From a virus (Duplodnaviria; Caudoviricetes): DNA of 64,000 bases. The stretch lies in IMG/VR virus record IMGVR_UViG_3300037310_000131, positions 1-64,000 of that record; one strand, 5' to 3'. Of the stretch, positions 9,096 to 33,820 are shown one piece after another. The notes beneath the pieces were generated by a model that was not told where the DNA came from, did no database searches, and saw only the letters and a list, made by a program, of their open reading frames with translations. Both the position numbers and the translations under genes were made by a program. Numbering within the stretch: the first letter of the stretch is position 1; every line of letters begins with the position of its first letter.

Positions 9096-9621
9096 ACAAA
9101 GCTTGACAGCGCGCCCGGCGCGCGCCAATCGTGTGCAAAAGGAGCACAGGCTTTCTCGCTCCATCGGCAAAATCGTAAACGCGAACGCCAGAGAAAGCGG
9201 CGCGAAGCAGGTGCCGAGCGCGGGGCCGCCTTAAACAAGCCAGCCACCTGAAATAATCTGGACGCTGAACGGAGACCCAAACAGCGTTAAAGTAGCTAGG
9301 GGGACAGCAACCCCGGTGGGACCCACAGATGCAGATTTCTGCGACGCGGTTATCGAGCTAAGCCAGCGCGTTCTGTGGGGTGTTGTATACCATACGGATA
9401 CCACACTTGAGGACATTTCTTCAAACCATCTCCATCCCTCCGCAGGGGTGGAGTGTGCCCAGCCGTTTCCAGCCTTAACGACATCCCTCGGTCTTGGGGC
9501 TTGTGCCGGCCCGCTTTGCGCGGGCCTGTATTATGTAGAAAGTTGAAGCTTAGCCAATAATAGTGTTGCCATTTGCCGCAGAAATCTATCAATGACGCGG
9601 ATGGAAACCAGCAAAGCGAAC

Positions 9622-10038
9622 ATGCCACATGTCACAATCTACACAGATGGTGGGTGCGATCCAAATCCCGGCCTTGGGTCGTGGGCGTATGTGTTGGTGT
9701 ATGGCAAGCACCAAAAGGAGGGGTGCGGCGTCGAGGAGAGCTCGACCAACAATCGCGCCGAGTATATCGCCATGATCGAGGGGATGAAGGCCCTAAAGCG
9801 GCCGTGTAGGGTCACGATAGTCACCGATTCCATGAACAACGTATTTCTGTTGCGAGCCGGCAGGGTGAAGTCGCACAAAAGAAAGCACCAAGATTTGGTC
9901 AACCAGATTCTCGACCTGATGGACATTCATGTTGTTGATTATCAAATCATTAAGGGGCATTCTGGGGTCGTCGGAAACGAGCGGTGTGACCAGCTTTGCC
10001 ATCAGGCTAGAAGAGATTTTTTGAAAAAGTTTGCATAA
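9622..10038 (+). CDS. rnhA: ribonuclease HI
   Basis: IYTDGGCDPNPGLGSW, STNNRAE, IVTDS, KGHSGVVGNERCDQL. Confidence 0.95.
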   Translation: MPHVTIYTDGGCDPNPGLGSWAYVLVYGKHQKEGCGVEESSTNNRAEYIAMIEGMKALKRPCRVTIVTDSMNNVFLLRAGRVKSHKRKHQDLVNQILDLMDIHVVDYQIIKGHSGVVGNERCDQLCHQARRDFLKKFA

Positions 10039-10240
10039 ATGCTTGACGGCCCCGGCCACCGCGTGTTTCTGTGGTCCCAGTTCAAGATGGCCTTCAGGGT
10101 TGAGCCACCATCAACCTGACTCGGGAAAGGCTTTCCGCAGAACCAATCCGCCAAGTGGCGAGAGGGTCTGAAGCGATGTTCATTTTAGTTGTAGAGGACA
10201 GTGAGCGGAACCCTGCGGGGTATGGCCTTGTCCTCAACAC

Positions 10241-10315
10241 GCCTCAGTGATGTAGGAGTAAACATACGTCGTTGCCAACGATGATACCAGAGTGCGAATC
10301 TCTGCTGGGGCACCA
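10241..10315 (+). tRNA. tRNA-Gly(GCC)
   Basis: acceptor GCCTCAG/CTGGGGC, loop TT GCC AA, encoded CCA. Confidence 0.9.
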
Positions 10316-10320
10316 ATTTC

Positions 10321-10395
10321 GGGTCGCAAGCATTTCAAGCGATGCGCTAGGCTTTTACCCTTGAGAACTCGGGGCAGTACCGAGGCGACCCACCA
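10321..10395 (+). tRNA. tRNA-Lys(TTT)
   Basis: GGGTCGC/GCGACCC, loop CT TTT AC, CCA. Confidence 0.88.
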
Positions 10396-10401
10396 ATTTA
10401 T

Positions 10402-10476
10402 CGCGACTGACCAAGCAAGCGCATGGGCCTGCCCGCAAAGCAGTGAAGCCGGGAGCGTTACCCGGAGTCGCGTCCA
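10402..10476 (+). tRNA. tRNA-Cys(GCA)
   Basis: CGCGACT/AGTCGCG, U73, loop CC GCA AA, CCA. Confidence 0.85.
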
Positions 10477-10482
10477 CTTAGT

Positions 10483-10551
10483 TGCCAGTTTGGTATTCAA
10501 CTGCAACCTTCACCTGGGGAGAGGCGCAGGCTCGAATCCTGCACTGGGGTA
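10483..10551 (+). pseudogene. degenerate tRNA, anticodon undetermined
   Basis: clean T-arm GCAGG CTCGAAT CCTGC and partial acceptor; poor anticodon stem, no CCA. Confidence 0.5.
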
Positions 10552-10702
10552 AAATCTCAGTTCGTATAGCGGATAGTATACTCCCTGCTCCAGCTATAGG
10601 CGACACAATGCCACTCAGTCTTGTAAGAAAAGCGCAGCAGTTTTTCTTACATGGTGCTCACGAAAGTTGTGCGACAGCCGGGAGAGACCGACACCTGAAC
10701 AT

Positions 10703-10779
10703 GGGCCAAAAGCATTGTTGGTAATGCGCCTCCTTTGCACGGAGAATGCTGGCGGGTTCGACTCCCCCTTGGTCCACCA
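10703..10779 (+). tRNA. tRNA-Ala(TGC)
   Basis: GGGCCAA/TTGGTCC with G3:U70, loop TT TGC AC, CCA. Confidence 0.92.
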
Positions 10780-10784
10780 ATTTC

Positions 10785-10860
10785 GTGCGCGTGGCTCATA
10801 TAGCTGAGCACCATCCTTCCAAGCTGGCCCAAGCAGGTGCAAGTCCTGTCGCGCACTCCA
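10785..10860 (+). tRNA. tRNA-Gly(TCC)
   Basis: GTGCGCG/CGCGCAC, U73, loop CT TCC AA, CCA. Confidence 0.88.
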
Positions 10861-10863
10861 TTT

Positions 10864-10923
10864 GGTCCTGCGGGCACTGCCGCCCGCTCCCCTCGGGGGC
10901 ACCTGAAAGAACAGGTCTGGACC
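10864..10923 (+). ncRNA. 60-nt four-way-junction RNA, unknown
   Basis: GGTCCTG/CTGGACC closing three GC-rich hairpins. Confidence 0.5.
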
Positions 10924-10931
10924 CCCTTTTT

Positions 10932-11018
10932 CCAGTCGTGCCAGAGCAGCAATTGGAGTGCGCTGTAAACGCATTGCCCCAGCGGGCTACATAGGTGCAA
11001 GTCCTTTCGACTGGACCA
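10932..11018 (+). tRNA. tRNA-Tyr(GTA), long variable arm, C1:G72
   Basis: CCAGTCG/CGACTGG, loop CT GTA AA, CCA. Confidence 0.9.
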
Positions 11019-11024
11019 CTTCAT

Positions 11025-11101
11025 TGTCTCGTAGCTCAGATAGTCAGAGCGCCCGCTTGATAAGCGGTAGGTCGTCGGTGCGAAACCGACCGGGACAACC
11101 A
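11025..11101 (+). tRNA. tRNA-Ile(GAT)
   Basis: TGTCTCG/CGGGACA, loop TT GAT AA, CCA. Confidence 0.92.
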
Positions 11102-11102
11102 T

Positions 11103-11420
11103 TTACACCACGACAATTCCTTCACGGATTTCGTGATGGCAGTTCGAGCAAACCAAAACACGCTTCTTGGCTTCTTCTAAAAGAGCCTCAAAGTTCTGGC
11201 CATGACCCTTGGTAGGGATGCCAAGTGACCTTTGTTGTGGGTCGCGGTGGTGAAAGTGAAGTGCAGATATGCAGGTTTTGTAGCCACAAGCACTGCGCTC
11301 GCCGCCAAATAGAGCAACAAGCCGTTGCTTGTTCTTGAGCCTGTTTACCTTGATATGTGCGTAGTTCCCTGTGCGTTTCTTTGAACCACCGGGAGCGGTA
11401 ATAACTTTTGAAATAGACAT
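11103..11420 (-). CDS. HNH endonuclease, possibly decayed, antisense within the tRNA array
   Basis: ACGYKTCISALHFHHRDP...LVCSNCHHEI. Confidence 0.75.
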   Translation of the reverse strand: MSISKVITAPGGSKKRTGNYAHIKVNRLKNKQRLVALFGGERSACGYKTCISALHFHHRDPQQRSLGIPTKGHGQNFEALLEEAKKRVLVCSNCHHEIREGIVVV

Positions 11421-11455
11421 AGCTAATCAAATGACGATTAGCATGGTCTGTCGAT

Positions 11456-11527
11456 AGGGCCGTGGCGAAGTCGCCAAGCAGAACTCCAAATCCTGTTATG
11501 GGAGCGCAATACTCTCCGGCTCTGCCA
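11456..11527 (+). tRNA. tRNA-Trp(CCA), shortened D-arm
   Basis: AGGGCCG/CGGCTCT, G73, loop CT CCA AA, CCA. Confidence 0.82.
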
Positions 11528-11649
11528 ATTTATGTTAGAGATAGCAGTCACAGCGTACGTCGCGTTCTGGATGATCCTTCTTCCGGCGCGGCGTAAGAAC
11601 TAGCAAATCAACAGGGCGAGCGGCCCACTCCGCCGCCCTTTAACTTTCT

Positions 11650-11724
11650 GGGCGTGTAGCTGAGATAGATTAGCGCGTGTCTGAAGAACACGAGACGCTG
11701 GAGCGTTACCAGCCTAGCCCACCA
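11650..11724 (+). tRNA. tRNA-Phe(GAA)
   Basis: anticodon arm CGTGT CT GAA GA ACACG, mismatched acceptor, CCA. Confidence 0.85.
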
Positions 11725-11729
11725 CTTTA

Positions 11730-11801
11730 TGCCGGGAGCTTCGGAAGCCGGCAAGGCTCATACCCTTGTCGAAGCACGTTCGACCCGTGCCCCAGCACCC
11801 A
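11730..11801 (+). tRNA. tRNA-Met-type(CAT), degenerate D-arm
   Basis: CAAGG CT CAT AC CCTTG, T-arm GCACG TTCGACC CGTGC, CCA. Confidence 0.75.
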
Positions 11802-11870
11802 TTTGGGCCAACGCAGTGAAAAGTACCGAAATGCCAAAGTAGCGAAAATCGAGTCGTTGTGCCCATTTAT

Positions 11871-11946
11871 CCATCCGAAGTGTTATCTGGTTGCACGTTC
11901 CGTTTGGGGCGGAATTGTCTCGGTTCAAATCCGGGCGGGTGGACCA
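11871..11946 (+). tRNA. tRNA-Pro(TGG)
   Basis: CCATCCG/CGGGTGG, loop TT TGG GG, CCA. Confidence 0.92.
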
Positions 11947-11952
11947 CTTTAT

Positions 11953-12027
11953 GGGGCTATGGAGTAGTGGTAACTACAGCGCACTGTCCATGCGCAGTCC
12001 GGGGTTCGATTCCCCGTAGCCTCGCCA
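11953..12027 (+). tRNA. tRNA-Asp(GTC)
   Basis: GGGGCTA/TAGCCTC, G73, loop CT GTC CA, CCA. Confidence 0.93.
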
Positions 12028-12032
12028 TTTAT

Positions 12033-12108
12033 GCGCGATTAGAATAGCGGCTAATTCGACAGTCCTACACACTGTTCATCGGGGGTTCGAGTCCCTCATT
12101 GCGCACCA
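12033..12108 (+). tRNA. tRNA-Val(TAC)
   Basis: GCGCGAT/ATTGCGC, loop CC TAC AC, CCA. Confidence 0.92.
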
Positions 12109-12133
12109 CTTTATTGTTGACTGCGTATATCTG

Positions 12134-12307
12134 GTGTGTACTGAAACATGGATTAGTTGCCATATAGATAAAACCTTGCACAAGAACGGACAATGCCGGG
12201 CAACACATGGCAAAATAAGGTGTTATCAAAACGGATGCAGGTGCGAAAGGTGTCGCGCAGCAAACGCAGAGCGTTCTAGAATTTATAGAGCAAAGTCTTT
12301 ATTGTAG
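12134..12307 (+). pseudogene. 57-codon HNH-endonuclease C-terminal remnant
   Basis: manual translation VCTETWISCHIDKTLHKNGQCRATHGKIRCYQNGCRCERCRAANAERSRIYRAKSLL; GTG start uncertain. Confidence 0.55.
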
Positions 12308-12378
12308 AGAAGGCAAATGGCTAGCCGGTTGTCTGTTAAACAACGTCGTTGATAGTTCGATTCTATCCTCTACAGCCA
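12303..12378 (+). tRNA. tRNA-Asn(GTT) copy 1
   Basis: TGTAGAG/CTCTACA, G73, loop CT GTT AA, CCA. Confidence 0.9.
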
Positions 12379-12382
12379 CTTC

Positions 12383-12457
12383 GGGTCGGTAGCTCAGCGG
12401 TAGAGCGTTCGATTGTTAATCGAATGGTCATTGGTTCAATCCCAATCCGTCCCTCCA
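12383..12457 (+). tRNA. tRNA-Asn(GTT) copy 2
   Basis: GGGTCGG/CCGTCCC, loop TT GTT AA, U73, CCA. Confidence 0.88.
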
Positions 12458-12458
12458 G

Positions 12459-12534
12459 CCCCGCTTAGCTCAGCAGTTAGAGCGTCTGCCTGACATGCAG
12501 AAGGCGGCTGGCGCGACACCAGCAGCGGGGACCA
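12459..12534 (+). tRNA. tRNA-Val(GAC)
   Basis: CCCCGCT/AGCGGGG, loop CT GAC AT, CCA. Confidence 0.9.
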
Positions 12535-12535
12535 T

Positions 12536-12611
12536 CGGAGCCTAGCCTAGCGGTTGAGGCACTTGTTTCGGGAACAAGACGAGGCGAGTTCGACTCTCGC
12601 GGCTCCGACCA
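12536..12611 (+). tRNA. tRNA-Pro(CGG)
   Basis: CGGAGCC/GGCTCCG, loop TT CGG GA, CCA. Confidence 0.95.
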
Positions 12612-12617
12612 TTTTAT

Positions 12618-12693
12618 GGACCATTGGTGTAGCGGCACTGCACGTCGAGCTTTGAACTCGAAGGTCTTGGGTCAGCACCAAGATGGTCTGCCA
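12618..12693 (+). tRNA. tRNA-Gln(TTG)
   Basis: GGACCAT/ATGGTCT, loop CT TTG AA, CCA. Confidence 0.9.
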
Positions 12694-12698
12694 ATTTC

Positions 12699-12772
12699 CG
12701 CCCTCTGGTGTAGTAGTAGCACCACGGATTCTGAACCCGTTAGTCTTGGAGCGTAACCAAGGGGGGCGGCCA
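12699..12772 (+). tRNA. tRNA-Gln(CTG)
   Basis: CGCCCTC/GGGGGCG, loop TT CTG AA, CCA. Confidence 0.9.
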
Positions 12773-12835
12773 TTTTAGTCTCGCGTACCATGAGTACAAG
12801 GAGCAACGGCCCCGTATTTTTGCGCGGCCAGCCAA

Positions 12836-13055
12836 TTTCCAGCAGGAGCGCATTCGCTGTTCGCAAATTGCGAATGGAGGAAGTTCGCGTCTGCGCAACA
12901 CACCGAGGCAGGGCTTGTTCTTTGGTTCAAGTCCGCTATGACCTCATGGTAGCAGCAACCCAAACAGACTGAGGATGAGTGTTGTCCTGCGATGTCGGGT
13001 TGGGGCTTAGACAAATGAATGCGGTCAACAGAAACGCGGCTACGTCCACTGGAAA
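12836..13055 (+). ncRNA. rnpB: minimal RNase P RNA (catalytic domain, rudimentary S-domain, no P18)
   Basis: GAGGAAGTTCGCG (12877-89) pairs with ACAGAAACGCGGCTA (13028-42) as P4 with bulged U; P2 CGCATTC/GAATGCG; TTAGACAAATG junction; P6 CAACAC/GTGTTG; P15 AACCC/GGGTT. Confidence 0.8.
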
Positions 13056-13062
13056 AATTTTT

Positions 13063-13139
13063 GGAAGCGAAGCCACAGTAGACGGGCACCCGGCTCTTAC
13101 CCGGATTTCGTGAGGCTGCGACTGCCTCCGCTTCCACCA
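13063..13139 (+). tRNA. tRNA-Lys(CTT)
   Basis: GGAAGCG/CGCTTCC, loop CT CTT AC, CCA. Confidence 0.88.
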
Positions 13140-13205
13140 CCTTCCAGTCAAGATGCCGTAAACTCACAGTGTGTGTTCGGGACCTTCATCTTGGCTGGGT
13201 TCTTT

Positions 13206-13277
13206 GGCCGGTGATTCAGCAATCCACAGGGTTTCATAAGCCCAGTGAATCGGGGGCAGCACCCGGACCAGCCACCA
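13206..13277 (+). tRNA. tRNA-Met/Ile2-type(CAT)
   Basis: GGGT TT CAT AA GCCC, acceptor GGCCGGT/ACCAGCC, CCA. Confidence 0.78.
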
Positions 13278-13281
13278 ATTT

Positions 13282-13357
13282 GCCTGTGAAGTTCATATAG
13301 CTGAACGTGTCCTTGGTAAGGACAATGCAGCGGGTGCAAGTCCCGCCTCAGGCTCCA
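13282..13357 (+). tRNA. tRNA-Thr(GGT)
   Basis: TGTCC TT GGT AA GGACA, CCA. Confidence 0.9.
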
Positions 13358-13358
13358 T

Positions 13359-13442
13359 GGGCGCGTGGTTAACTACGAATAGCAGAGTATTCTGCCTTAG
13401 AAGCAGACAGCCTTGGGGGTGCAAGTCCCTCCGCGCCTACCA
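13359..13442 (+). tRNA. tRNA-Leu(TAG), short variable region, enlarged D-loop
   Basis: GGGCGCG/CGCGCCT, loop CT TAG AA, CCA. Confidence 0.82.
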
Positions 13443-13449
13443 ATTTCAT

Positions 13450-13524
13450 GGCCCAATCGACAACCAGCTAAGTCACTGCGCTTTCAACGCGGAGTACCGG
13501 GGGCAGCACCCGGTTGGGCTACCA
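13450..13524 (+). tRNA. tRNA-Glu(TTC)
   Basis: GGCCCAA/TTGGGCT, loop CT TTC AA, CCA. Confidence 0.9.
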
Positions 13525-13530
13525 CTTCAT

Positions 13531-13605
13531 GGCCGCATCGTATAGAAGTCAGTACGCTGCCCTCTCAAGGCAGGAACCCCGGAGCGTTACCGGGTGCGGC
13601 TACCA
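13531..13605 (+). tRNA. tRNA-Glu(CTC)
   Basis: GGCCGCA/TGCGGCT, loop CT CTC AA, CCA. Confidence 0.92.
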
Positions 13606-13608
13606 TTT

Positions 13609-13693
13609 CGCCAACTGGATGGAATAGCAGACACGGGGCACTCAAAACGCCCTGCCGAAAGGCGTCCCGGTGCAAGTCCGGGGTTGGCGACCA
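13609..13693 (+). tRNA. tRNA-Leu(CAA)
   Basis: CGCCAAC/GTTGGCG, loop CT CAA AA, V-arm with GAAA loop, CCA. Confidence 0.92.
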
Positions 13694-13694
13694 C

Positions 13695-13787
13695 GGTCCC
13701 GTGGTGTAATGTTAGCACCGCTAGTTTTATAAACTGGGCGCACTAGATTGGTGCCGTGTGCTGGTTCAAGTCCAGCCGGGACTACCA
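13695..13787 (+). tRNA. tRNA with TAT (Ile) anticodon and long variable arm
   Basis: GGTCCCG/CGGGACT, CTAGT TT TAT AA ACTGG, 22-nt V region, CCA. Confidence 0.85.
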
Positions 13788-13791
13788 CTTT

Positions 13792-13866
13792 GGTCTGTAA
13801 GTGTTGAGAGATACACGCGGCTTTCGTAAAGCTGAATACTCGGAGCGTTACCGAGACGGACCTCCA
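13792..13866 (+). tRNA. tRNA-Thr(CGT)
   Basis: GGTCTGT/ACGGACC, loop TT CGT AA, CCA. Confidence 0.9.
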
Positions 13867-13870
13867 TTTT

Positions 13871-13946
13871 GTTCTGCAAGCATTGCTGGCGATGCGGCTG
13901 CCTTGTAAGCAGCAGATAGTCGGTTCGATTCCGGCGCGGAACTCCA
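13871..13946 (+). tRNA. tRNA-Thr(TGT)
   Basis: GTTCTGC/GCGGAAC, loop CT TGT AA, CCA. Confidence 0.95.
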
Positions 13947-14025
13947 TCAGGAGCAGTAGTGTAACCGGCAAACACAGGAGCCTGTGAAGCTCCGGTAGAG
14001 AGTTCGAGCCTCTCCCTCCTGACCA
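13947..14025 (+). tRNA. tRNA-His(GTG), atypical acceptor
   Basis: GGAGC CT GTG AA GCTCC, CAGGAG/CTCCTG, A73, CCA. Confidence 0.85.
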
Positions 14026-14029
14026 CTTT

Positions 14030-14105
14030 GCAAGACTCGGCAATGGATAGTCAGTCTCCCCGCGAAGGAGGTTTAGTCCCAGTTCAAGTCTGGGGTCTTG
14101 CGCCA
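14030..14105 (+). tRNA. tRNA-Arg(GCG)
   Basis: GCAAGAC/GTCTTGC, loop CC GCG AA, CCA. Confidence 0.85.
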
Positions 14106-14199
14106 TTTGCTTGACACAGATACCGATATTACAAATGCCGTTGCGAACTGTGTAGAAAAGCGTCTACAGAGGCGTCAAGGAAATGGAGACAATCACTTT

Positions 14200-14275
14200 G
14201 TCGCGTTCAGCCAAGCAGACAGGCGCTGGTCTTCTAAGCCAAGCAATGCGGGTGCAACTCCTGCACGCGGCACCA
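14200..14275 (+). tRNA. tRNA-Arg(TCT)
   Basis: GTCGCGT/ACGCGGC, loop CT TCT AA, CCA. Confidence 0.88.
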
Positions 14276-14278
14276 TTT

Positions 14279-14353
14279 GCTCCATTCGTCCAATGTATAG
14301 GGCCTGCGTCTTCGGAACGCATGATGAGGGTTAGATTCCTTCATGGAGCGCCA
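14279..14353 (+). tRNA. tRNA-Arg(TCG)
   Basis: GCTCCAT/ATGGAGC, loop CT TCG GA, CCA. Confidence 0.9.
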
Positions 14354-14354
14354 C

Positions 14355-14430
14355 TTTCTCGTAGCCTAAGGGATAGGCCCCGGTTTCCTAAACCGTGCGC
14401 ATGCAGGTTCGAGTCCTGTCGAGAAAGCCA
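14355..14430 (+). tRNA. tRNA-Arg(CCT)
   Basis: TTTCTCG/CGAGAAA, loop TT CCT AA, CCA. Confidence 0.93.
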
Positions 14431-14434
14431 CTTC

Positions 14435-14502
14435 GGGCCAAATACAGATTCGATTGGTCCTTCGGGCCCAAGACGCGGGGGCGGTGCCCGCTTGGTCCAC
14501 CA
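14435..14502 (+). ncRNA. mini-tmRNA-like RNA: tRNA-like domain only
   Basis: Ala acceptor with G3:U70, stemless D-loop ATACAGATTCGA, UUCG-capped hairpin in the P2 position, GAC-GCGGG/CCCGC T-arm, ACCA. Confidence 0.7.
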
Positions 14503-14506
14503 CTTT

Positions 14507-14592
14507 GGAGACGCAATCCAGCAGGGCTGGAACGGGCCTTGAAAACCCAGTGACGCGCAAGCGTTGGGATTCGACTTCTCGCGTCTCCGCCA
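14507..14592 (+). tRNA. tRNA-Ser(TGA)
   Basis: GGAGACG/CGTCTCC, G73, loop CT TGA AA, V-arm, CCA. Confidence 0.88.
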
Positions 14593-14593
14593 C

Positions 14594-14681
14594 GGAGGGT
14601 GAACTGCTCAGGGAGCAGGGCGCTCTGGAAAGGCGTACGCCCGGTCAACCGGGTGGGTTTCGATTACTCCTCCCTCCGCCA
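14594..14681 (+). tRNA. tRNA-Ser(GGA)
   Basis: loop CT GGA AA, long V-arm, G73, CCA. Confidence 0.88.
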
Positions 14682-14685
14682 CTTT

Positions 14686-14771
14686 GGAAGCAACTGAGGG
14701 CAGTTCCTCAACCGGCCTCGAAACCCGGAGTGCCCGCAAGGGCAATGGCGCAACTCCATTTGCTTCCGCCA
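14686..14771 (+). tRNA. tRNA-Ser(CGA)
   Basis: GGAAGCA/TGCTTCC, loop CT CGA AA, V-arm, CCA. Confidence 0.88.
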
Positions 14772-14772
14772 T

Positions 14773-14863
14773 GGTGAGTTAAGCAGCCGAGGCGCTGCCG
14801 GGGTTTGCTAAACCCTTGGACCGGCTAGCCCCGGTTGTGTGGCAGGAACACAACTCACCGCCA
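14773..14863 (+). tRNA. tRNA-Ser(GCT)
   Basis: GGTGAGT/ACTCACC, loop TT GCT AA, V-arm, CCA. Confidence 0.88.
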
Positions 14864-14921
14864 CTTTGTTCTTGCAATCGCCGCCGGGCGGGTACAAGGA
14901 TGTCAACGAAACGCAACTAAG

Positions 14922-15557
14922 ATGAGCATCGCAAACATACTGAACAGGCCCGTGCTTGTTCTGAATGCCAACTGGCAGGCCATCAGCGCCGCGAAGTCGG
15001 TCAAGCGCGCAATCGAGGACATGACAAGCGGAAGGCCCGAAGACGGATGGCTACCGCCTTTTCGCGGCATGGATGTCGAGCTAAACGCAGACGGCACCCT
15101 GTTCTACGCCAACCCGGTTGACTGGGACGAATGGGTGCGCCTTCCTGTGCGCCCCGGCATAGACGAGTTCGTTTCCACGGCGTTCCTCAAGATTCGCGCT
15201 CCCCGCGTCATCATATCGCGCAACTACAACAAGTCGCGCGTGCGCGTGGTTGCGCTTTCCAAGGGGGCCATCAAGCGTCGCGACGGGGGCCAGTGCCAGT
15301 ACTGCCACAGGTTCTTCCCGATGGACGAGCTGAACATTGACCACGTGATTCCGCAGCACCATGGCGGCGAGGACACGTGGGAAAACATGGTTTGCTCTTG
15401 CATTACTTGCAATTCGCGGAAGGGTCACAAGTTCAACCACGAGATTGGATACAAGCTGCTCAAGGAGCCGTCCAGTCCCGCGCCGGTTGCGGAAACAGCC
15501 ATCTACATTGAAATCAAACACCCAACATGGACACCATTCCTCAACCACCTGAAATGA
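14922..15557 (+). CDS. HNH endonuclease, McrA-like
   Basis: RPVLVLNANW N-terminus; RRDGGQCQYC...NIDHVIP...GGEDTWENMVCSCITCNSRKG. Confidence 0.9.
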   Translation: MSIANILNRPVLVLNANWQAISAAKSVKRAIEDMTSGRPEDGWLPPFRGMDVELNADGTLFYANPVDWDEWVRLPVRPGIDEFVSTAFLKIRAPRVIISRNYNKSRVRVVALSKGAIKRRDGGQCQYCHRFFPMDELNIDHVIPQHHGGEDTWENMVCSCITCNSRKGHKFNHEIGYKLLKEPSSPAPVAETAIYIEIKHPTWTPFLNHLK

Positions 15558-20372: not shown

Positions 20373-21986
20373 ATGTCGCAAGGACCGCTAATTGGAGACA
20401 ACACAAATCTGCTGCTTAACAAAATCAGCATGGCTGGCTACCGACCTAAACTAAGCGATCCGCAGAATCTTCTCATCAAGAAGCTCGTCAACGCGATCAA
20501 TCAGCTACAGACTGGAGGTGGCTCGACGGGTCCGACCGGATACACTGGATACACGGGCCCAGCAGGTGGCGGCGGTGCGACTGGGCCCACGGGTTATACG
20601 GGACCGGCTGGTGCGGATGGCGCGACTGGTCCAACTGGTTACACTGGCTACACCGGCACGGCAGGCGCTCCGGGATCAACCGGCTACACAGGCTACACCG
20701 GACCCGCTGGTATTGATGGTGCCACTGGCTACACAGGCTACACCGGACCCGCTGGAGTAGACGGGGCGACGGGCCCCACGGGATACACGGGTTACACAGG
20801 TCCCGGCAACTTTACCGGATACACGGGCCCTACGGGTTACACGGGATATACCGGGCCCAATGGGTCAAACGGAAGCACCGGCCCAACTGGTTACACCGGC
20901 CCGGCTGGTCCTGATGGTCTTGACGGCCCTACTGGCTACACGGGATACACCGGTCCACGCGGAGAGACTGGGCCAACCGGACCAACAGGCTATACTGGTC
21001 CCGGAAACTTCACTGGATACACGGGGCCCACTGGATACACGGGCCCGGATGGAGCGACTGGCCCCACCGGGTACACTGGCCCCCAAGGCCCAACCGGATT
21101 CACCGGCTACACTGGCCCGGGCAACTTCACCGGCTACACTGGCTATACTGGTTACACCGGTCCTCAGGGGGCAACCGGGTTCACTGGCTACACCGGCCCA
21201 ATTGGTCCCACTGGCGCAACTGGCTACACGGGCCCGGGCAACTTCACAGGATACACTGGACCAACTGGCCCGACCGGATACACCGGACCGGGGAATTTTA
21301 CGGGGTATACAGGCTACACTGGGCCCGCCGGTCCAACCGGCTACACTGGCGACACGGGTCCGCAGGGCCCGACAGGACCGACTGGGTACACCGGTTATAC
21401 TGGTCCCGGCAATTTTACCGGATACACTGGCTACACGGGGTACACCGGTTATACTGGTCCCGGCAACTTCACTGGGTACACCGGGCCAACGGGACCAACC
21501 GGGTACACCGGCCCAGCGGGCCCGACTGGCCCAACCGGCTACACCGGTTACACGGGACCATCAGCGCTCTACGCCGCAGCCACGGCTGGAACGACGACCT
21601 CAACAAGCTTGGTTGACCTCAATGGTCTTTCGCTTGCCCTTACTGCTGGCACTTGGATTTTTGAGGCACTCATAAGCGGAAGCGCGGGCACTGGAACGGC
21701 TGGTGCAAAGTTTGGTGTACAGTACTCAGGCTCAACTACGTCTATTGATGCGCTTCATGTCGGCCAGCTCAACACCACGGGGTGGGCGGCAACGGCAAGG
21801 ATAACGGCCTTCAATACCGCCAGCACGACTGTTATGACAACCAGTGCGGCCCAGTGCCATGTAAAGATATTCGGCAAGGTTGTTGTTGCTGGTTCCGGCA
21901 ACCTTACCATCAGGGGCCTAAAGGTCACATCCGGCACCCTGACCTACAACGGCTCGTCTATGATGTGGGCATTCAAGGTGGCCTAA
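20373..21986 (+). CDS. collagen-like (G-x-T) fibre protein 1
   Basis: ~350 aa of GPT/GYT triplets followed by a beta-rich head domain. Confidence 0.85.
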
Positions 21987-27473: not shown

Positions 27474-31347
<3,874 letters not shown>

Positions 31348-31348
<1 letters not shown>

Positions 31349-32012: not shown

Positions 32013-32056
32013 CAATACCGGCTTGACCTGTCGCCCGCTTGCGCTATGGGTGGCGC

Positions 32057-33820
32057 ATGAGGTTTTCTGTTGTCCTGATTTGCCGAAACGAGGAGAAGAC
32101 GATTCCGCGACTGATGGCCTCCCTGAGGGAGTTCCAGTCCCGGGGCGGAGAGGTAATCCTGATGGATACCGGCTCCTCCGACAAGAGCGCCGAAGTGGCC
32201 CGCGCCCATGGCTGCACAGTGCATGAGGTTGGGGAGCGCTTCATGGGCACCATCGACGACTCGCTGGCCGAGCGCATCAACAACTTCTTCCTGCGTGATC
32301 CCGGATATAAGATCGTTAGGGTCGGTGACAGGTACTTCGATTACTCCGCCGCCCGCAACTACGCGGCCTCCCTGTCCAAGACGGACATGGTGGCGATGCC
32401 GGACTGCGACGAGGAGTACACGAAGCTGGACTTGGACAAGATCAACGATGTCATTGAGCGCGGCGCAGAGCAGCTCGAGTACGAGTTCGTCTTCGCCCAC
32501 GCGCCTGACGGCAGCGACCTCATCAAGTTCCGCCACTGCAAGTTTTACAATCGCACCAAGCTGAAGTGGACTGGCGTGGTGCATGAGGTTCTGGCGGGCC
32601 ACGCAAGCCGGGTCTACCTCGACACCTCTACCATCAAGCTTGAGCACTGGCAGAACCCGTCCGACAATCGCACCCGCTATCTGACCGGGTTGGCGGTGGA
32701 CTGCTACAAGAATCCCGACAACGACCGCAACTCACACTACTTCGCCCGGGAGATGCTGTTCTGCGGCCTGGCGAAGTCGGCCTACCATGAGTTCTCGCGC
32801 CACATTGCCATGAAGAAATGGCCAACAGAAGCCGCGCAAAGCATGATATATCAGGGGGATGCGTTGATGATTATGGGCAAACGGGAGGAGGCAATTGCCC
32901 GCTGGCACGATTCCGTCACTCACTACGGAAACAGGCGAGAGGCGTGGATGCGGCTGGCCTCCCACTACCACAAGGCCAACGATTACCAGCGTGCGGCGAG
33001 CTACGCCAATGCCGCCCTCGCGGTTCCATATAACGACTTCTATGGAAACAACATGGAACACTATCGCCACGGGCCGCACGAGATTCTCTACTGGGCCTAC
33101 TGGTGGCTCGGCGACAAGTCGGCAAGCTTCGAGCACTGGAAGCGGGCCAAGTCCTATTGGCCAGACAATCGCAAGTTCATGCACGACAGCGTGTTCTACC
33201 TAGACATGCTGCGCCCCAAGGTGGTGGTCATAATCCCGGCGCTGGGCGGCGACGGCAGGAGCGCCGACGAGACCCGGGACTTGGTCAAGCAGCGGGCGGG
33301 GTGGTGGAACACCGAGGTCGAGGTGGTCGTGGACGACCCGGCATGCCGCAAGGGCTGCCCAATCACCCTAAAGAGGGGCGTAGAGGGCACCCACAGCGAC
33401 TTTGTGCTGTTCTTGGGGTCAGATTGCGTCCCGGAGAACGGCTTCGTTCTAAAGGCATTGGAGTGCATGTATCGGTCCTTCCCCGAGGCCGACGGACTGG
33501 TCGGGCTGAACGACGGAATCTGGAAGAAGGGGGAGATTGCCTGCCACTGGCTGGCGTCCCGCAAGCTCCTGCCCCACTTGGATGGTGAGTTCTTCTACAC
33601 CGGCTACCATCACCTAGGGTGCGACAACGAGCTTACGGCCCGCTGCCAACTCATGGGCAGGTATGTCTGGTGTGAGGAAGCCAAGATTGAGCACCGGCAC
33701 CCAGCCTCTGGGTTTCCGGCGGACAAGACCCATGAACTCGCGTGGAGCAGGAAGGACGAGGACCGGGCCCTGCTGAGGTCCCGCGCCAAGGCCATGGGAT
33801 TTGAGCACCTGCTTATTTGA
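32057..33820 (+). CDS. GT2 glycosyltransferase with TPRs and a second GT-A domain
   Basis: FSVVLICRNEE, LMDTGSSDKS, DYSAARN, DCDEE; TPR helices; C-terminal FLGSDC...GCDNEL. Confidence 0.88.
   Translation: MRFSVVLICRNEEKTIPRLMASLREFQSRGGEVILMDTGSSDKSAEVARAHGCTVHEVGERFMGTIDDSLAERINNFFLRDPGYKIVRVGDRYFDYSAARNYAASLSKTDMVAMPDCDEEYTKLDLDKINDVIERGAEQLEYEFVFAHAPDGSDLIKFRHCKFYNRTKLKWTGVVHEVLAGHASRVYLDTSTIKLEHWQNPSDNRTRYLTGLAVDCYKNPDNDRNSHYFAREMLFCGLAKSAYHEFSRHIAMKKWPTEAAQSMIYQGDALMIMGKREEAIARWHDSVTHYGNRREAWMRLASHYHKANDYQRAASYANAALAVPYNDFYGNNMEHYRHGPHEILYWAYWWLGDKSASFEHWKRAKSYWPDNRKFMHDSVFYLDMLRPKVVVIIPALGGDGRSADETRDLVKQRAGWWNTEVEVVVDDPACRKGCPITLKRGVEGTHSDFVLFLGSDCVPENGFVLKALECMYRSFPEADGLVGLNDGIWKKGEIACHWLASRKLLPHLDGEFFYTGYHHLGCDNELTARCQLMGRYVWCEEAKIEHRHPASGFPADKTHELAWSRKDEDRALLRSRAKAMGFEHLLI

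Follow-up and report, generated by a model that had tools for sequence, protein, structure and literature searches.

A 68-nt tmRNA gene reduced to its tRNA-like domain in the tRNA array of a phage

Positions 14435 to 14502 of the DNA analysed here are a real gene, encoding a tmRNA that consists only of the tRNA-like domain (TLD) and carries no tag reading frame. The window, as we call the whole stretch of 64,000 nt that was analysed, belongs to an IMG/VR virus contig of 73,445 nt that is estimated to be 81% complete. An initial annotation had claimed that this RNA equals the tRNA-like domain of tmRNA and nothing more, and its anatomy, its membership of a family of similar genes, the covariation within that family and the matches of its 3' half to Rfam models all agree with that claim. 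The parts of this mini-tmRNA, its two neighbours and the alanine tRNA gene with which it is compared are the following:

14435..14502, + strand: the whole TLD-only (tag-less) tmRNA gene, 68 nt with CCA encoded, by direct reading and by the covariance models R1 and R2
14435..14441, + strand: 5' strand of the acceptor stem, 7/7 pairs with 14492-14498, identical to 10703-10709 of tRNA-Ala
14437, + strand: G3 of the G3:U70 pair, in the 5' strand of the acceptor
14442..14453, + strand: stemless, unpaired D-loop analogue of 12 nt that ends in the tmRNA motif GATTCGA and aligns with the D-loops of 45 relatives
14454..14471, + strand: P2-like hairpin of 18 nt, a UUCG tetraloop on a 7-bp stem that contains one U.C mismatch
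14472..14474, + strand: GAC linker from P2 to the T arm, conserved tmRNA core that aligns to the GAC of the RF01849 and RF04321 consensus
14475..14491, + strand: T arm with a perfect 5-bp stem and the 7-nt loop GGCGGTG, an alpha-type tmRNA T-loop
14492..14498, + strand: 3' strand of the acceptor stem, with U70 at 14496
14499..14502, + strand: discriminator A73 (14499) and encoded CCA (14500-14502)
10703..10779, + strand: tRNA-Ala(UGC) of the same phage, identical in acceptor stem, discriminator and CCA to the mini-tmRNA
14355..14430, + strand: tRNA-Arg(CCU), the upstream neighbour, called by ARAGORN and separated from the mini-tmRNA by a 4-nt spacer (14431-14434)
14507..14592, + strand: class-II tRNA-like gene, probably Ser, the downstream neighbour after a 4-nt spacer (14503-14506), found by reading and fold and called by neither ARAGORN nor RF00005

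Direct reading of the gene shows an acceptor in which all seven pairs form and the third is G:U, and the annotated identity of this acceptor, with its G3:U70 pair and A-CCA end, to that of the phage tRNA-Ala was borne out at 10703-10779. The stemless D-loop, the UUCG hairpin at the site of P2, the GAC and the T stem that had been annotated also lie where they were placed. The hairpin, which closes on a C(UUCG)G tetraloop, is present as described, and two details have to be added to its description, namely the single U.C mismatch and the fact that its 5' strand copies the 3' strand of the acceptor. These 18 nt stand in for the entire mRNA-like and pseudoknot body of tmRNA. Resume codon, tag frame and stop codon are absent, there being only the hairpin with its 4-nt loop between the D-loop and GAC; a pseudoknot-rich body (PK1-PK4 or equivalents) is absent from the 68-nt gene as well, which has no sequence left for one, and direct reading of 14435-14502 finds no anticodon loop. 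The molecule therefore combines the 7-bp acceptor, G3:U70, A73 and CCA end of a tmRNA tRNA-like domain with its stemless D-loop bearing the UUCGA motif, its GAC linker and its type of T arm. It also has the traits of the class represented by the gene of Mycobacterium phage DS6A, namely standard order of the parts, a length below about 100 nt, the two halves of the TLD joined by a short helix, and no tag frame.

Standard annotation tools pass over this gene. ARAGORN makes no call at 14435-14502, and no Rfam family reaches its curated cut-off there; in a cmscan against all of Rfam, the tmRNA model RF00023, the mitochondrial tmRNA model RF02544 and the tRNA model RF00005 gave nothing for the window copy at E<=10. 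The check that the initial annotation had suggested, by ARAGORN, RF00023 and the mitochondrial tmRNA models, accordingly leaves the window copy unmatched by all three. Partial matches come from the models of permuted tmRNAs and involve the 3' half of the mini-tmRNA, by which we mean GAC, T arm, acceptor strand and CCA: RF04321 (tmRNA_permuted) aligned to it at a relaxed threshold with 22.9 bits (cut-off 47), and RF01849 (alpha_tmRNA), in a search of 76 nt, with 17.6 bits (E 4e-4, cut-off 50). The consensus T-loop of alpha_tmRNA is of the same GGCgGUA type as that of the mini-tmRNA. RF00023 does match four sister genes from other contigs, at 39.7-57.5 bits, with two of the four above the curated cut-off. 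Because ARAGORN, and for the window copy also Rfam, misses mini-tmRNA genes, such genes are absent from phage annotations; the covariance model that we built separates them cleanly.

Relatives were collected from IMG/VR and JGI metagenomes by pattern scans for a D-loop motif lying at most a few dozen bases from GAC and the T stem, together with a covariance model (R1) whose seed was a model-based alignment of the window copy and three other minis. R1 scores the window copy, a member of its own seed, at 78.2 bits, and finds members outside its training at 40-76 bits, the DS6A gene among them at 40 bits. After removal of duplicates, and with a 7/7 acceptor stem and G3:U70 as the criteria for retention, 47 distinct minis of 68-94 nt were left on viral and metagenome contigs, the window copy being of the smallest size among them. 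The discriminator is A in all 47, although it was not a criterion for retention, and CCA is encoded in 25 of them. The loops of their P2 hairpins range from 4 to 17 nt or more, and a 7-nt anticodon loop is not conserved among them. In the alignment of 46 of these sequences, window included, which was fitted to the model and hence favours the structure, 96.7% of the cells were paired, as against 49-54% when the partners were slid by 1-3 columns. Compensatory changes were seen in 12 of the 19 pairs of this alignment, all seven P2 pairs covary, and G3:U70 is present in every one of the 46 sequences, as its use for retention requires. The T stem is invariant, largely because the harvesting patterns fixed it.

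The window copy was tested with a second covariance model (R2), built from the 45 other sequences with the window copy excluded and run with filters off over the whole 64 kb. R2 scores the window copy at 58.5 bits (E 3.3e-13), so that the gene is recognised by a model of its class made without it. The runner-up in the window is tRNA-Phe with 23.1 bits and tRNA-Ala obtains 15.6 bits, leaving a gap of 35 bits to any tRNA. Since the training patterns fixed the TTCGA, GAC and T-stem motifs, R2 is to some extent circular in the corresponding columns; the patterns left acceptor pairing, A73, spacing and P2 pairing free. Close relatives of the phage were not met with: blastn of 14100-15100 against 50,697 phage records gave no match, a back-translated search with the neighbouring DnaB helicase gave no match in IMG/VR, and tblastn with DnaB gave only matches of 30-33% identity, which are uninformative on the host.

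The gene lies in a one-strand tRNA array that extends from about 10241 to 14771 and contains 24 tRNAs by ARAGORN and a few more by Rfam. All 24 ARAGORN-called tRNAs encode CCA, and the spacers of the array are mostly 1-7 nt long and often read CTTT, CTTC or TTT, a convention that the 4-nt spacers and the encoded CCA of the mini-tmRNA follow. No sigma-70-like promoter was predicted in 9900-15000 and no terminator-like site adjoins the mini-tmRNA. Open reading frames that overlap it were rejected as spurious, as they also run across tRNA genes. In the 73-kb record we found no SmpB gene, no full or permuted tmRNA and no separate tmRNA coding piece, and neither an integrase (the tyrosine type was searched for) nor an RtcB ligase of the kind that DS6A has.

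Several further observations concern the array and its surroundings. Directly downstream of the mini-tmRNA stand three serine-like class-II genes (14507-14592, 14594-14681 and 14686-14771, + strand, CCA encoded), probably serine isoacceptors with the anticodons UGA, GGA and CGA by reading; ARAGORN and RF00005 call none of the three, and the third folds as a cloverleaf. Two other tRNA-like genes that ARAGORN does not call, at about 13206-13277 and 13448-13523 (+ strand), have GGCAGCA T-loops that resemble the alpha-type tmRNA loop, and the notion that the T-loop of the mini-tmRNA is unique in the array, true of the 24 ARAGORN-called tRNAs, fails for these two. Many of the called tRNAs have non-canonical T-loops of their own (TGCGAAT, TGCAAGT, AGCGTTA, CGCGACA, GTCAGCA). 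A gap in the array at 12838-13053 (+ strand) matches the archaeal RNase P RNA model RF00373 with 35.1 bits (E 1e-8, cut-off 84) in an alignment that runs end to end, with the region of the specificity domain collapsed from about 89 to 16 nt. This sequence match lends some support to a putative phage RNase P RNA devoid of the S domain which, if real, would be the enzyme maturing the mini-tmRNA and the tRNAs. The array is preceded by an RNase H gene (9592-10038, + strand) and immediately followed by an HNH endonuclease gene (14835-15557, + strand), both by Pfam. Farther on, PHROGs identifies two large collagen-like tail-fibre proteins (20373-21986 and 27752-31348, + strand) and a glycosyltransferase (32039-33820), and most other large proteins of the phage have no PHROG match.

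The T arm and the junctions of the mini-tmRNA have counterparts in the two-piece tmRNAs of other phages. An identical T arm is found in the two-piece tmRNA of Mesorhizobium phage Cp1R7A-A1, and the junctions, TTCGATTGG on the 5' side and CAAGAC on the 3' side, are similar to the corresponding ones in the two-piece tmRNA of Caulobacter phage CcrPW. Among 127 viral-contig matches to this type of T arm roughly 110 are permuted, with the 5' acceptor downstream of CCA, and a handful are minis. Among cellular genomes, standard tmRNAs of Gracilibacteria, Saccharibacteria and Peribacteria (CPR) contain the exact T-arm 20-mer, as does one alphaproteobacterium (permuted), and chance matches to it occur in GC-rich genomes; the tmRNAs with this T arm include that of Pseudogemmobacter. 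The T arm is thus typical of tmRNA and names no host lineage.

In other phages, too, some minis lie in or beside tRNA arrays (contigs L158, L194, L205, L208, L220, L230/L005 and L006), and others are solitary; those of the L168 group, for instance, stand between terminase genes. Directly in front of the L208 copy is a promoter of consensus sequence, TTGACA-17-TATAAT. Five other mini-bearing phage records, two of which are 100% complete, yielded neither a full-length tmRNA nor an SmpB gene. Related arrangements were seen on further contigs. In L080 (IMGVR_UViG_3300010885_019006, 554-678 with flanks, - strand) a permuted tmRNA has its spacer and its 5' acceptor/D-loop piece duplicated on both sides of the acceptor piece, which looks like an intermediate on the way from permuted back to standard order. 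L093 (IMGVR_UViG_3300017527_000281, 5-84 and 1317-1395, + strand) bears two different minis that have one acceptor stem in common and differ in the T-loop, alpha-type in one and canonical in the other. The viral contigs L073, L125 and L133 have acceptor pieces of the permuted type with a protein gene directly after them and no 5' acceptor strand in the available downstream stretch (up to 300 nt; in L125 about 16 nt past CCA); these may be genes of the acceptor piece only, or their coding pieces may lie farther off.

A peculiarity of the window copy is the repeat within it. The 5' strand of P2 (14454-14460) is an exact copy of the 3' strand of the acceptor (14492-14498), so that the 5' strand of the acceptor is able to pair with either. 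The predicted energies of the two resulting structures are about -25 kcal/mol for the tRNA-like fold and -23.8 kcal/mol for a two-hairpin fold, and pairing is predicted with a probability of about 0.45 in the acceptor stem, as against about 0.54 in the alternative two-hairpin pairing. According to these models the competing fold could lower charging. The fold z-score of the mini-tmRNA is -0.24, by a measure that is usually uninformative for tRNA-like RNAs. No other member of the mini family has such an internal repeat of the acceptor strand (47 distinct sequences), and in two other phages that have both a tRNA-Ala and a mini the acceptor stems of the two genes differ. The repeat could be the scar of a recombination event, or it could act as a switch.

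G3:U70 and A73 are the alanine identity of tmRNA, and its D-loop, GA/GAC core and T arm form the elbow to which SmpB binds. In the role that we propose, the mini-tmRNA would, on the simplest reading, be co-transcribed within the long phage tRNA array and excised like the neighbouring tRNAs, by RNase P at the 5' end and by trimming to the encoded CCA at the 3' end. If established tmRNA biology applies, the host alanyl-tRNA synthetase would charge it by virtue of G3:U70 and A73, and host SmpB would bind it by way of the stemless D-loop, the GA/GAC core and the tmRNA-type T arm. Having no resume codon, tag frame or stop codon, the mini-tmRNA cannot complete trans-translation. It would instead vie with host tmRNA for SmpB, and perhaps also for EF-Tu and for the vacant A site in stalled ribosomes, with the outcome that ssrA tagging and the proteolysis of truncated proteins would be suppressed in the infected cell. 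On balance we lean towards the view that the mini-tmRNA contends with host tmRNA for SmpB and for stalled ribosomes and would in this way suppress tagging; charging, SmpB binding and inhibition are attributed to it by analogy with published TLD-only constructs, and what the phage would gain is speculation. According to the literature, tmRNA is strongly inhibited by a DS6A-like molecule, which may act by titration of SmpB (PMC4131195; PMC11915505, both citing Mao et al. 2009), in a test made in E. coli with a related construct and not with the RNA of the window (PMC4131195). A decoy of SmpB, as inferred in the initial annotation, would also agree with the reading of the DS6A-type molecule given in PMC4131195, citing Mao et al. 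2009.

The same anatomy would also serve a rescue function in which nothing is tagged. Charged with alanine and accompanied by SmpB, the mini-tmRNA would enter stalled ribosomes and take over the nascent chain, and the peptidyl-RNA would be freed by drop-off and peptidyl-tRNA hydrolase or by an ArfB-like factor, so that ribosomes are released without phage proteins being marked, as has been proposed for the CDS-less tmRNAs of mitochondria and plastids. We know of no bacterial mechanism that releases peptidyl-Ala-TLD, and no release factor-like partner was noticed in the record, where the dedicated search covered SmpB only. A TLD-only RNA does accept a peptide in vitro, as PMC3895274 reports, and CDS-less organelle tmRNAs are kept together with SmpB (PMC11915505), yet the sole in vivo test cited reports inhibition of tmRNA and not rescue (PMC4131195). 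A phage with 24 or more called tRNAs, to which reading adds others, clearly invests in translation capacity, which suits rescue, and we regard this account, the main rival of the decoy, as doubtful, with a real minority chance. It is unlikely that the gene is a functionless remnant, either an internally deleted tmRNA gene or a chimaera made of pieces of tRNA-Ala and tmRNA, which travels passively with the array. The window copy has no close relatives to show purifying selection on it, its internal acceptor repeat and its acceptor identical to that of tRNA-Ala resemble recombination scars, and its predicted fold is ambiguous. Against this, the 7/7 acceptor pairs, G3:U70, A73, CCA, the GA/GAC core and the perfect T stem are all intact and its spacing in the array is exact; the architecture is found again and again, with compensatory changes, in 47 distinct sequences, and some copies have a strong promoter of their own, such as that upstream of the L208 copy.

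Two other explanations fare worse. The alternative offered by the initial annotation, a D-armless alanine tRNA with a CCUUCGG loop, would make the middle hairpin an anticodon arm, for decoding or as a decoy for anticodon nucleases or tRNA-modifying enzymes. It would account for the location in a tRNA array and for the acceptor shared with tRNA-Ala, and unusual T-loops are common among the tRNAs of this array, but the silence of ARAGORN and RF00005, a UUCG tetraloop in place of a 7-nt anticodon loop, the relatives without a conserved loop of that size, the 35 bits by which R2 sets the gene apart from every tRNA of the window, and a D-loop motif and GAC linker that are features of tmRNA make it very improbable. 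The 3' ends of tmRNA genes are common sites of phage integration, and the gene could in principle be an attP copy of the 3' end of host ssrA for integration into the tmRNA gene, a fragment that one of our pattern matches (L010) resembles. We find this scarcely credible, as both acceptor strands and the D-loop are present, which an att core does not need, no tyrosine integrase was found in the 73-kb record and the gene is surrounded by a tRNA array.

Bacteria rely mainly on trans-translation for ribosome rescue and quality control, and should it be usual for phages to encode a small RNA that knocks this path out or gets around it, this would be an unstudied layer of host takeover. We put forward, tentatively and as something that may well not hold, a wider reading in which tag-less mini-tmRNAs are a widespread and repeatedly evolved phage tool against host trans-translation, arising by internal deletion of standard genes as well as by re-permutation of two-piece alpha-type genes. 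In the present phage the tool would sit in a self-sufficient island of translation RNAs, which would also hold tRNAs with remodelled elbows and the RNase P-like RNA devoid of the S domain, and the window copy might, by means of its duplicated acceptor strand, switch from a tRNA-like fold that can be charged to a two-hairpin fold that is inactive, and back.

The class to which the mini-tmRNA belongs is already known, having been published in 2009 and 2014, and its phage precedent, which the initial annotation had missed, is DS6A. Papers on the tmRNA databases list "Mycobacterium phage DS6A (TLD only)", and the 2025 tmRNA update counts nine "Standard, no CDS" sequences and names DS6A alongside plastid genes of about 65 bp and CDS-less mitochondrial tmRNAs (PMC11915505); a literature search under other names for such RNAs found no further phage examples. 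The DS6A gene, which we located at JN698994 28478-28556 (tmRNA Website tmID 11587), shares with that of the window its encoding by a phage, the standard, non-permuted order, the 7-bp acceptor, G3:U70 and A73, the stemless D-loop, the short P2 hairpin in place of message and pseudoknots, the T arm and the lack of a tag frame. It differs in being 79 nt long, with a canonical TTCGATT T-loop, a GCAC linker and no encoded CCA, and in standing alone between protein genes of a temperate actinophage, whereas the gene of the window has 68 nt, an alpha-type T-loop and an encoded CCA and belongs to a large tRNA array of an unrelated phage in which no integrase was found.

The permuted alpha-type phage tmRNAs (RF01849, RF04321), for example those of Mesorhizobium phage Cp1R7A-A1, Caulobacter phage CcrPW and Erythrobacter phage XM05, share with the gene of the window the GGCRGWR T-loop of the alpha_tmRNA consensus, the T arm being identical in Cp1R7A-A1, and CcrPW having in common with the gene of the window the CAAGAC junction and a P2 that starts with TTCGATTGG. 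In these permuted tmRNAs the 5' acceptor strand comes after CCA, and a tag frame and a structured body are present, while the gene of the window is in standard order and has no body. The CDS-less tmRNAs of organelles, from jakobid and oomycete mitochondria (RF02544) and from Mallomonadaceae plastids (about 65 bp), likewise have the tRNA-like domain only and no tag frame (PMC11915505). They are conserved together with SmpB, which suggests some tag-less activity (PMC11915505), and they differ in being organellar, with imported SmpB; RF02544 does not match the window at E<=10, and we read the two as independent reductions. The TLD-only constructs of the laboratory (Shimizu and Ueda 2006; Mao et al. 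2009) share the architecture of the gene of the window, with an acceptor, a D-loop, a capped P2 and a T arm. Derived by engineering from E. coli tmRNA, they inhibit tmRNA in vivo and accept a peptide in vitro, peptidyl transfer to a TLD-only RNA being described in PMC3895274, citing Shimizu and Ueda 2006 (for inhibition, PMC4131195, citing Mao et al. 2009). The RNA of the window is in contrast a natural phage RNA. What the window copy brings to this class is the alpha-type T arm, the place inside a tRNA array and the size of 68 nt, that is, added breadth and not a new principle.
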